A DNA stretch of 64,000 bases from the NCBI GenBank assembly GCA_029261055.1, contig JAJDCA010000068.1, positions 69,275 through 133,274 on the forward strand, written 5' to 3'. Origin of the DNA: Candidatus Omnitrophota bacterium. GTDB taxonomy: Bacteria; Omnitrophota; Gorgyraeia; Zapsychrales; Zapsychraceae. How positions within the stretch are numbered: the first letter of the stretch is position 1; each line of letters opens with the position of its first letter. The translations under genes were made by a program, and so were the position numbers. The notes under the pieces are model-generated. The model searched no databases and was not told the DNA's origin. It saw nothing but the letters and a program-made list of their open reading frames with translations. Shown in pieces: positions 11,576-13,573 of this stretch.

Positions 11576-11737
11576 TCACAATGATTTTTCGATCCAATAA
11601 CTATCTTTATTTTTTTCAACCCTATACTTTAGGTAATCAATTCCCATCAACCGCAACAAAAACCCGACGGGTGTCACAACCAAGAAAAAAATAATAAAAA
11701 AGAAAACCTTGAGGATAAAATTGATAATCTGTTTCAT
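11576..11737 (-). CDS. Unannotated small membrane protein (53 aa), candidate SxtK-like carbamoyltransferase-associated ORF
   Basis: Hand translation from ATG 11735-11737: MKQIINFILKVFFFIIFFLVVTPVGFLLRLMGIDYLKYRVEKNKDSYWIEKSL*, one strongly hydrophobic helix. It starts 4 nt after the carbamoyltransferase stop. Below the 60-aa cutoff of the track. Confidence 0.45.
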   Translation of the reverse strand: MKQIINFILKVFFFIIFFLVVTPVGFLLRLMGIDYLKYRVEKNKDSYWIEKSL

Positions 11738-11740
11738 AGT

Positions 11741-13573
11741 TTAATCCAATTGAAATTCTTTACGCCAATCCTTTTTTTCAATAAATGTAGGTTGTTTTTT
11801 CTTATCAAGTAAAAATGATCCCATAACCAAATAATCCATCTCAGTTCGCATAAAACACCTGTAGGCATCTTCAGGACTTTCGACGATCGGCTCCCCTCTC
11901 ACATTAAATGAAGTATTAATCATGACCGGGCAGCCCGTTTGCTCTTTAAATTCCTTAATTAAATCGTAAAAATTGGAATTAAGTTCCTTATGCACTGTTT
12001 GTATACGAGCAGATTGATCCACGTGAGTAATGGCAGGAATTTCGGAACGTATTGCTTTCATGCGGTCCAATCCCTTCAGATAGGTAACATTGTTCTTTCT
12101 CTTATCTTTTCGAATATGTCCAACCATTAGCATATACGGGGATGAAAAATCATTTTTGATTTTATTATCCCCTTCTACTTCAAACCAATCCCGTACATCC
12201 TCATAAAGAACAGCAGGCGCAAAGGGACGAAAACTTTCACGATATTTAATTTTTAAATTCATGATTGACTGCATATTCTCTGAACGGGGATCGCCTAGAA
12301 TGCTCCTGGCACCTAACGCCCGCGGACCAAATTCCATTTTACCATCAAACCATCCAACAACATTTCCTTCCGCGATCTTGGCAGCCACCTGTGAAAATAA
12401 ATCTTTATTTTCCAAATAAGAAAATGAATATTTACGCGTCTCTAAAAATTCTTTAACTGTTTTATTTGAATATGCGGTTCCCAAATAAGAACCCATTTGC
12501 CGGTCAAGTTTTGATGTGTCTTTGCGCTCATTGCCCAAAACTTTATACCAAATCCAAAGAGCGGCACCAAGAGCACTTCCCGCATCTCCCGAGGCCGGTT
12601 GAACCCAAACACGTTTAAACGGCCCCTCCCGATAAAGACGCCCATTGGAAACACAATTCAAAGCGACCCCTCCGGACATAGTTAGATTTTCCTCACCAGT
12701 TTCGGCATAAACATGACGCCCTATTTTTAATACAATGTCCTCGGTTATTTTCTGAATAGAACTGGCCAAATCCATATCCATTTCCGTCACTTTACTTTCT
12801 GGCTTTCTCGGTATGCGACCAAAAAGTTTGTGAAACCGATCATTCGTCATGGTAAAACCCGTACAATAGTTAAAATAATCCATATTAAGCCGAAAGGATC
12901 CATCTTCCTTTAAATCAATAAGGTTATTGAGAATTATATCCACATATTTAGGTTTTCCATAAGGGGCAAGCCCCATAAGCTTGTACTCTCCAGAATTAAC
13001 CTTAAACCCTGTGTAATAAGTAAACGCTGAATAAAGCAATCCGAGAGAATGAGGAAAATGAAGTTCCTTTTTGATTTTCAATTGATTTCCTTTAGCAGTC
13101 CCGTAACTTAAAGTCGCCCATTCTCCAACGCCATCCATAGTAAGGAATGCAGCTCGGTCAAAGGGAGAAGGATAAAATGCTCCTGCCGCATGGGATTCAT
13201 GATGTTCTGGACAGATAATCTTACCTTTGAATCCAAGCTCTTTACGGATGGTCTGTTCCAGCCAAAATTTTTCCTTAATCCAGAGTGGCATAGCCCGTAA
13301 AAAAGAACCTAATCCTTTGGGCGCATACATTAAATATGTCTTCATGAGCCGATCCATTTTTAAACGTGAATTCTCATAGAATGCCACATAATCCAATTCT
13401 TTTGCCGAAATATTCGCTTGCTTCAGACAAAATTGAATAGCCTGTTTTGGAAATGAAGCATCATGCCTTTTTCGCGTAAAACGCTCTTCCTGGGCGGCGG
13501 CAATAACCTCACCATCACGGACAATACAGGCCGCACTATCATGATAAAAGGCAGAAATCCCTAAGATATACAT
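11741..13573 (-). CDS. NodU/CmcH-family carbamoyltransferase (O-carbamoyltransferase)
   Basis: N-terminus MYILGISAFYHDSAACIVRDGEVIAAAQEERFTRKRHDASFP is the hallmark of NodU/CmcH/TobZ carbamoyltransferases (Kae1/YgjD-like + HypF-like domains). 610 aa. Confidence 0.9.
   Translation of the reverse strand: MYILGISAFYHDSAACIVRDGEVIAAAQEERFTRKRHDASFPKQAIQFCLKQANISAKELDYVAFYENSRLKMDRLMKTYLMYAPKGLGSFLRAMPLWIKEKFWLEQTIRKELGFKGKIICPEHHESHAAGAFYPSPFDRAAFLTMDGVGEWATLSYGTAKGNQLKIKKELHFPHSLGLLYSAFTYYTGFKVNSGEYKLMGLAPYGKPKYVDIILNNLIDLKEDGSFRLNMDYFNYCTGFTMTNDRFHKLFGRIPRKPESKVTEMDMDLASSIQKITEDIVLKIGRHVYAETGEENLTMSGGVALNCVSNGRLYREGPFKRVWVQPASGDAGSALGAALWIWYKVLGNERKDTSKLDRQMGSYLGTAYSNKTVKEFLETRKYSFSYLENKDLFSQVAAKIAEGNVVGWFDGKMEFGPRALGARSILGDPRSENMQSIMNLKIKYRESFRPFAPAVLYEDVRDWFEVEGDNKIKNDFSSPYMLMVGHIRKDKRKNNVTYLKGLDRMKAIRSEIPAITHVDQSARIQTVHKELNSNFYDLIKEFKEQTGCPVMINTSFNVRGEPIVESPEDAYRCFMRTEMDYLVMGSFLLDKKKQPTFIEKKDWRKEFQLD

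Follow-up and report, generated by a model that had tools for sequence, protein, structure and literature searches.

What does the short open reading frame (ORF) directly behind a carbamoyltransferase gene of a Candidatus Omnitrophota bacterium encode, and is it a gene at all? The question arose from a 64,000-nucleotide (nt) stretch of contig JAJDCA010000068.1 (referred to as the window), in which the gene for an O-carbamoyltransferase (CT) is followed by an ORF for a peptide of 53 amino acids (aa; MKQIINFILKVFFFIIFFLVVTPVGFLLRLMGIDYLKYRVEKNKDSYWIEKSL). The initial annotation had placed this ORF 4 nt past the CT stop codon and had described its product as a peptide with a single transmembrane segment, possibly a conserved partner of the CT. 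Its coordinates and sequence were correct, with 3 nt separating the stop codon from the ATG, which begins at the fourth base past the stop (...CAATTGGAT TAA ACT ATG AAA). Judged by its conservation, the ORF is a real gene and not a chance occurrence. Its product, termed mini-SxtJ here, is by homology the last transmembrane helix plus the conserved tail of SxtJ, corresponding to the C-terminal third of that protein family.

Within 7.5 kb of this DNA (38% G+C), 68 ORFs of at least 30 aa were counted. Because an ORF of 53 codons is unremarkable at such density, the case for a gene rests on conservation. A word-indexed protein search returned a single homolog, also of 53 aa and 81% identical, from a locus (L001) with the same order of genes for a 682-aa protein, the CT, and the 53-aa peptide. 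Between the two orthologs, the ratio of non-synonymous to synonymous substitution rates (dN/dS) was 0.087 (17.5 synonymous and 10.5 non-synonymous differences), compared with 0.071 for the neighboring CT genes. It was 0.12–0.19 in two other pairs of the 53-aa ORF with measurable dS; in the remaining pairs, synonymous sites were saturated, with a proportion of non-synonymous differences (pN) of ∼0.2. An exhaustive HMMER search with a profile of the two sequences retrieved 887 cluster representatives (E ≤ 1e-3) from 1.84 billion proteins. Among the best 149 of these, 54 were no longer than 70 aa and 55 were 111–160 aa long, and the short forms made up dozens of independent clusters at 50% identity. 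Orthologs down to ∼33% identity retained a length of 52–60 aa, the start directly after the CT gene, and five invariant residues, and no frameshifts or stop codons were seen in them. The invariant residues are P23, G25, D34, Y47, and W48 (alignments of 25 and 42 sequences); F17 and R29 are nearly so among 42 short and medium forms. The initial annotation would have given up the peptide had it lacked conservation or coding selection; what was found were 887 homologs and a dN/dS of 0.087.

Other searches were less productive. For a metagenome scan, the alignment of 25 short forms proved too diverse as a seed, and a closer alignment of six sequences recovered eight loci with long forms only and no new short forms. 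Querying plasmids with the 53-aa peptide (tblastn) gave no match. The exact 53-mer was also absent from a collection of 15 billion proteins in which the CT and the 682-aa and 330-aa proteins of the window were present; orthologous short ORFs elsewhere do get called by metagenome gene callers. One apparent short form of 49 aa (P0203) was discarded as a fragment of a long SxtJ, its contig being a long-read assembly riddled with frameshifts and its C terminus the KMKNQF tail of the long form.

The family was assigned by comparison with 80 genome loci from many phyla, centered on CTs 56–62% identical to that of the window. In nearly all CT loci fetched, genes for a membrane protein of ∼135 aa and, next, for a peptide of ∼52 aa come after the CT. 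The former is Pfam family SxtJ (PF19588), which NCBI names “SxtJ family membrane protein”; the latter is DUF5989 (PF19451), the SxtK family, and a Planktothrix plasmid carries the same SxtJ name next to “DUF5989 family protein.” A profile was built from 34 long (∼135 aa) CT-adjacent proteins of 34 other genomes, with no short form in the seed. It matched the window peptide with E = 1.5e-13 (49.7 bits), residues 9–52 aligning to positions 81–124 of 137. Reciprocally, the peptide’s own profile recovered PF19588 proteins at E ∼1e-8 from the 1.84 billion proteins, including SxtJ proteins of 125–150 aa. The SxtJ motif TPxG..R..GxDxL...SYW is present in the peptide (T22, P23, G25, R29, G32, D34, L36, S46, Y47, and W48). 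Long SxtJ proteins (∼125–150 aa) have in addition an N-terminal K-x-L-R-K-F-G segment and two further hydrophobic helices, whereas the peptide has one helix; they end in ...YERQF or ...MKNQF (a Y/F-E/K-R/K/N-Q-F tail), whereas the peptide ends in ...SYWIEKSL. Of the seven features taken as defining SxtJ, four are lacking in the peptide (a Pfam match above the gathering score, the length with the additional helices, the C-terminal tail, and a DUF5989 neighbor), and the C-terminal core is kept.

Association with CT genes was pronounced. Using the long-SxtJ profile, an SxtJ homolog was found beside the CT in 77 of the 80 CT-centered loci, whereas, apart from SxtJ, no large protein family (at the level of BLAST) was common to more than seven of them; DUF5989 was present in 61 of 82 loci. 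Every genuine short form that was looked up adjoins a CT gene, in at least three unrelated gene contexts. It directly follows the CT in L001, L083, L084, L085, L088, L090, and L091; a 54-aa version begins 22 nt past the CT stop codon in another member of the Omnitrophota (L078); and it lies 5 nt before the CT in L086 and L087, the protein in question having been seen on 153 contigs. The gene downstream of the short form varies, encoding an aldolase, NeuB, a NeuB/CTP_transf_3 fusion, a cytidylyltransferase, a peptidase-like protein, or a GMC oxidoreductase. In L012 (3989–6250), the CT and a full SxtJ even share one continuous reading frame of 753 aa, and apparently the same arrangement occurs in L041 (1888–3912; ORF of 674 aa in the CT frame). 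Unless they stem from misassembly, such ORFs would be natural fusions and argue for physical cooperation of the two proteins.

The long forms showed some variation in gene structure and order. In an Ignavibacteriales metagenome-assembled genome (MAG), SxtJ is split into ORFs of 67 and 70 aa (L016, 5825–6242), probably by a frameshift or an assembly error, and is intact in the sister locus L013 (138 aa). Most genome loci have the order CT-SxtJ-DUF5989, and four AT-rich contigs from marine metagenomes (L092, L094, L095, and L099) have the order SxtJ-DUF5989-CT, the small genes abutting upstream.

The architecture of mini-SxtJ is that of a one-helix membrane protein. Its Kyte-Doolittle maximum over 19 residues is 2.71 (residues 4–22), and AlphaFold, supplied with an alignment of 42 sequences, modeled one helix spanning residues 2–30 with a predicted local distance difference test (pLDDT) score above 90. 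The tail, which bears the invariant D, Y, and W, was modeled as coil with a pLDDT of ∼70. With the single helix, the purifying selection, and the recurrence beside CT genes, the initial description of a conserved single-pass peptide is well supported. The ribosome-binding site that it had placed upstream (AAGGT/GAGG) does not exist within 25 nt of the ATG, where only GGAT at −10 was found. The missing site is no argument against translation, because about half of the genes in the window are likewise devoid of a Shine-Dalgarno-like sequence. The 3-nt spacer, together with the lack of a strong Shine-Dalgarno site, makes coupled translation likely. The CT stop codon and the start codon of mini-SxtJ are in frame, which raised the possibility of read-through; the coincidence is not conserved in L084, L088, and L090, and read-through was dismissed.

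The CT itself (610 aa) was correctly recognized by the initial annotation as an O-carbamoyltransferase of the NodU/CmcH type. Pfam domains Carbam_trans_N (E = 1.9e-105; 353.6 bits) and Carbam_trans_C (E = 2.8e-72; 242.2 bits) were detected, and among enzymes with solved structures, GdmN (E = 4.9e-85) and NovN (E = 6.1e-83) matched over nearly their full length. TobZ matched with E ∼1e-70 in three stretches, best over the C-terminal half. All three are the same two-domain enzyme as the window CT, with a Kae1-like N domain and a YrdC-like C domain. Direct reading of the translation revealed the catalytic motifs HHESHAAGAF (the His-rich metal site of the Kae1-like domain) and the FGPRALGARS loop; a GPRALGRS motif is cited elsewhere (bioRxiv 10.64898/2026.06.11.731795). 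NodU itself can be ruled out as its identity, the score against the NCBIfam equivalog model NF041651 being 123.9 bits (cut-off, 1,000). From genomic context (NeuB, CMP-sugar cytidylyltransferases, and DegT), the acceptor of the CT is presumed to be a sugar, and a carbamoylated sugar as the product of this glycan locus is plausible.

Mini-SxtJ is the last member of a five-gene module, which in order of transcription encodes an SGNH-like protein of ∼331 aa, a micro-ORF of 63–66 aa, a protein of 647–682 aa, the CT, and mini-SxtJ. The module was found in the same order in eight loci (the window, L001, L083 [fragmented], L084, L085, L088, L090, and L100–L102) and with the same genes in permuted order in L078. 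In the window, its genes are joined by an ATGA overlap, a TAATG overlap, an overlap of 13 nt, and the 3-nt spacer. CTs of the module are 65–83% identical to that of the window, whereas those paired with long SxtJ reach 62% at most, and none of the module loci has DUF5989. Conversely, no clear homolog of the 64-aa or the 682-aa gene was found in the long-SxtJ loci fetched; matches to the 330-aa protein in three of these (L035, L093, and L097) were weak and at the SGNH level. An independent seed, a 662-aa homolog of the 682-aa protein, recovered the same module, including a 53-aa ORF after the CT. Because the module loci carry NeuB, CMP-sugar cytidylyltransferases, DegT aminotransferases, PseB/PseC-like enzymes, and Glyco_tran_28_C, their gene content points to pathways for nonulosonic-acid sugars (pseudaminic- or legionaminic-like). 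The nearest of them are metagenomic, and homologs of the 682-aa protein include one labeled as a Spirochaetes MAG and one labeled Gallionella.

The remaining three proteins of the module are as follows. For the 682-aa protein, AlphaFold gave a confident model (pLDDT 87; predicted template modeling [pTM] score 0.88), in which a putative SGNH-type fold at the N terminus is interrupted by a TPR-like insert and the C-terminal domain is all-helical. The best Foldseek matches were TesA and acetyl-xylan esterases of the SGNH type, with a probability of ∼1.0 and weak E-values (∼5e-3), and strings resembling the SGNH blocks GDS, GxND, and DxxH can be read directly in the sequence (LGDSTS, GNCD, and DHCHP). 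It has at least 193 homologs with 45–64% identity, none of them functionally named, and among the loci fetched it is confined to those with mini-SxtJ. The 330-aa protein has orthologs in all module loci (43–69% identity), that of L090 matching Lipase_GDSL_2 with E = 1.4e-5. Between these two genes, overlapping both with its start and stop codons, lies the second micro-ORF, preceded by AGGAG 6 nt before its ATG. Orthologs were detected by BLAST in L001, L078, L083–L085, L088, and L090, and they share an invariant C terminus, G-D-D-(V/I)-Y-P-(L/I)-F (GDDVYPLF in the window). No Pfam family matched it, and its 66-aa version starting from TTG was absent from the 15 billion proteins. On account of its similar size and its C-terminal Y-x-L-F, it may be the counterpart of DUF5989, which is a lead only; profile-profile comparison (hhalign) with DUF5989 gave a probability of 10% over 23 N-terminal columns.

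What, then, might mini-SxtJ do? The balance tips slightly toward a translated subunit that, as the core of SxtJ and in the context of the five-gene module, anchors the carbamoylation machinery to the membrane or serves it as an adaptor. Mini-SxtJ and CT would be made from one polycistronic message; mini-SxtJ would hold or organize the soluble CT, possibly along with the two SGNH-like proteins that partner it, at the cytoplasmic membrane, where the nonulosonic-acid-type sugar made by the locus, or a carrier-linked form of it, would be carbamoylated. The tail may need its partner to fold. Lysine and arginine residues number two on the N side of the helix (including K10) and six on the C side (including R29), a distribution that predicts a cytoplasmic tail. 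The lineage would have lost DUF5989 (SxtK) along with the first two helices of SxtJ, with the five-gene module in their place, and the helix and tail that were retained would be the element serving the CT. Their joint disappearance from this clade points to a possible interaction between DUF5989 and the N-terminal half of SxtJ. In a more far-reaching version, which we offer as a tentative and rather doubtful proposal, the module would be a hitherto undescribed one that recurs in nonulosonic-acid loci of many uncultured bacteria. Its two micro-proteins, both lacking a functional annotation, would bring the soluble enzymes together in a machine at the membrane for the carbamoylation, or some other O-modification, of a nine-carbon sugar, with mini-SxtJ as the minimal functional unit of the SxtJ family and the lost parts as interaction partners.

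Several observations weigh against such an adaptor role. To our knowledge, GdmN, NovN, and TobZ are soluble tailoring enzymes of secondary metabolism for which neither a membrane subunit nor the need for one has been reported. Scanning the 53-mer against Pfam and NCBIfam yielded nothing, not even a match to SxtJ at E ≤ 1. Other short forms scored 14–17.6 bits against Pfam SxtJ (gathering score, 24.4) at model positions 62–98 of 99; the short forms bear no family name because the Pfam model ends at GxDxL, which leaves only its last 26–37 positions to be matched. The topology of the long form is at odds with the cytoplasmic tail predicted for mini-SxtJ: the CT–SxtJ fusion, together with the three hydrophobic segments of the long-form consensus, would locate the tail on the extracellular side, apart from the CT. 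Furthermore, SxtJ and SxtK are not strictly tied to a CT. On a Planktothrix agardhii plasmid (L103; NZ_LR882945.1, 44887–46726), SxtJ, DUF5989, and an SGNH/GDSL hydrolase lie beside a gene of the sterol-desaturase family, with no CT in the 8 kb shown, and an SxtJ-DUF5989-SGNH set without a CT is also part of the suomilide cluster (PMC10157211). Finally, translation of mini-SxtJ and its binding to the CT are predictions from sequence. In papers up to 2026, SxtJ is only hypothesized to act “in conjunction” with SxtI (PMC2679770, PMC12300590, and bioRxiv 10.64898/2026.06.11.731795), and no experimentally determined function of SxtJ was reported in the literature found.

The CT-free sets lend some weight to an unlikely, yet the best surviving, alternative, namely that mini-SxtJ is real but partners the SGNH/GDSL enzymes of the module (SxtL-like), for example by anchoring or regulating a glycan esterase or an acyl- or carbamoyl-transferase. 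The window module contains two SGNH-like proteins, and such proteins adjoin SxtJ/DUF5989/CT sets in L035, L081, and L097. However, none of the SGNH-type clusters occurred in more than seven of the CT-centered loci (77 of 80 for SxtJ), the fused ORF of L012 (apparently also that of L041) joins SxtJ to the CT, and in L086/L087, where the short form immediately precedes the CT, the protein after the CT has no detectable SGNH domain.

Much less probable is that the 53-aa ORF is a decaying, non-functional remnant of a full-length sxtJ. It does comprise only the last third of SxtJ, with neither the N-terminal helices nor a YERQF-type tail and with no DUF5989 beside it, and its exact sequence is missing from the protein collection that holds its neighbors. 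Decay is nonetheless hard to reconcile with dN/dS values of 0.09–0.19, with a length, a position, and five residues maintained down to ∼33% identity, and with the many independent clusters of short forms.

The initial annotation had likened the peptide to SxtK. The expectation that a small hydrophobic protein recurs next to CTs was right; the family was not, as the peptide is the C-terminal third of SxtJ and does not match DUF5989. Its size (∼50 aa), its one hydrophobic helix, and its position next to the CT would all suit SxtK. However, PF19451 was not matched at E ≤ 1, nor was a profile derived from 34 DUF5989 peptides, which detects 61 loci at E < 1e-5; with it, no match was obtained in the window, L001, L002, L078, L083–L088, L090, and L091 either. 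The hallmarks of DUF5989 (W.FL+.RKKWWL.P ... APFIY.LF-COOH) are absent, whereas the SxtJ motif is present. Thus, an SxtK/DUF5989-type peptide is refuted at the level of sequence and is almost certainly the wrong assignment. An equally improbable chance ORF in AT-rich DNA, or regulatory leader of the downstream aldolase gene, for which the abundance of short ORFs and the weak ribosome-binding site could be cited, is refuted by the conservation data, i.e., by profile E-values ≤1e-13, by purifying selection specific to the frame, and by a conserved linkage to the upstream CT that does not extend to the downstream gene, which changes from locus to locus.

For the anchoring role favored above, general analogs can be named. 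KdpF, AcrZ, CydX, and MgtS are small single-pass proteins that partner larger ones. Mini-SxtJ is like them in size, in having one helix, in co-transcription with the partner gene, and in its frequent absence from annotation; there is no sequence relationship, and the functional resemblance is an analogy only. Helpers of this kind, which cross the membrane once and assist bigger enzymes or transporters, have been reviewed (PMC12648545).

Closer at hand is the saxitoxin cluster. There, as in the window, small hydrophobic ORFs directly adjoin the gene for an O-carbamoyltransferase and a GDSL/SGNH enzyme is encoded close by (SxtI-SxtJ-SxtK[-SxtL]), and the last helix and the tail motif TPxG..GxDxL..SYW of SxtJ are common to the window peptide. 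Saxitoxin SxtJ has ∼135 aa, three hydrophobic segments, and a YERQF-type C terminus, whereas mini-SxtJ has 53 aa, one helix, and no such tail. The saxitoxin cluster encodes an alkaloid pathway with SxtK, the window a nonulosonic-acid sugar locus without SxtK/DUF5989. The SGNH proteins differ as well, those of the window (330 and 682 aa) being devoid of N-terminal membrane segments. With the CT-SxtJ-DUF5989 triads that are widespread in bacteria, the window shares the CT subfamily (56–62% identity) and the neighboring family. By comparison with these triads, SxtJ is reduced to its C-terminal core and DUF5989 is absent in the sub-clade of the window CT (65–83% identity), and the window adds the 330-aa, 64-aa, and 682-aa genes, which were never found with the long form in the loci fetched.

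The system is therefore not of a new kind. The pairing of CT and micro-protein raised in the initial annotation has long been published, sxtJ and sxtK having been known next to sxtI since the papers on the sxt cluster (PMC2885083 and PMC2679770). Every saxitoxin pathway scheme since then has listed the two proteins as of unknown role but probable co-workers of the CT, and the terms used for what they do have not gone beyond “unknown,” “regulatory,” or “hypothesised to work in conjunction” (PMC2885083, PMC2679770, PMC7073992, PMC12300590, and bioRxiv 10.64898/2026.06.11.731795). What is new is the one-helix form of SxtJ, which is widespread below annotation thresholds and, in nonulosonic-acid loci, belongs to a module of five genes of its own that encodes another conserved micro-protein as well. 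A natural version of 53 residues would mark the indispensable part of SxtJ, i.e., one helix and the GxDxL...SYW tail, and offers a small and tractable target for studies of interaction, topology, and deletion. It also exposes a gap in annotation: short forms fall below the Pfam threshold and bear no functional name where they are called, and both micro-proteins of the module (the second as its 66-aa version) are missing from a collection that holds their neighbors. Should the adaptor machine be real, it would provide a first handle on the role of SxtJ and SxtK in saxitoxin synthesis. If the CT acts on the nonulosonic acid of the locus, the product would be a carbamoylated sialic-acid-like sugar; a literature search for carbamoyltransferases in connection with nonulosonic acids found no paper.

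Table 1. Positions of mini-SxtJ, the other genes of its module, and the flanking genes in the window.
Feature	Position	Strand	Basis or remark
CMP-sugar-type cytidylyltransferase	9963-10799	-	Pfam; downstream context
HpcH/HpaI-type aldolase	10748-11548	-	Pfam; downstream of the 53-aa ORF
53-aa micro-ORF (minimal SxtJ-type, mini-SxtJ)	11576..11737	-	ORF; long-SxtJ profile; conservation
O-carbamoyltransferase (CT), NodU/CmcH/TobZ/SxtI type, 610 aa	11741..13573	-	Pfam and solved-enzyme matches
682-aa module protein, putative SGNH/TPR	13561..15609	-	AlphaFold/Foldseek; end overlaps CT start by 13 nt
Second micro-ORF, 64 aa from ATG (66 aa from upstream TTG)	15609..15803	-	Alignment of seven orthologs
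330-aa SGNH/GDSL-like module protein	15800..16792	-	Lipase_GDSL_2, E = 7e-4 (weak, below Pfam cut-off)
Second cytidylyltransferase	16799-17566	-	Pfam; upstream context
611-aa protein, no significant Pfam family	17563-19398	-	Upstream context
Methyltransferase	within 16799..21370	-	Pfam; upstream context
NeuB nonulosonic-acid synthase	20339-21370	-	Pfam; upstream context

The window as a whole (1–64000) is one very long sugar/glycan gene array. Its 56 ORFs of 150 aa or more are, apart from a shadow ORF of 176 aa, all encoded on the minus strand, where they follow one another closely or overlap. The placement of the CT in a glycan locus by the initial annotation is borne out by the families detected with Pfam, which include NeuB, three CTP_transf_3 proteins, three DegT-type aminotransferases (one fused to an RmlD-like reductase), WbqC, a PglD-like acetyltransferase, a DHQ-synthase-like enzyme, a radical-SAM/SPASM protein, and several methyltransferases. 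No significant Pfam family was found for four minus-strand proteins of 525 aa (7607–9184), 611 aa (17563–19398), 365 aa (23722–24819), and 727 aa (27691–29874), the first of which was also without a homolog in any locus fetched. Between 10500 and 17000, predicted promoters and terminators were no more numerous than in shuffled sequence. Downstream of mini-SxtJ, the ORFs for the aldolase and the next cytidylyltransferase overlap by 52 nt (10748–10799, minus strand) when the latter is taken to start at its first ATG. By direct reading, an internal ATG 48 nt further on (MSSVTAIIPAR...) reduces this overlap to 4 nt and is the likelier start.

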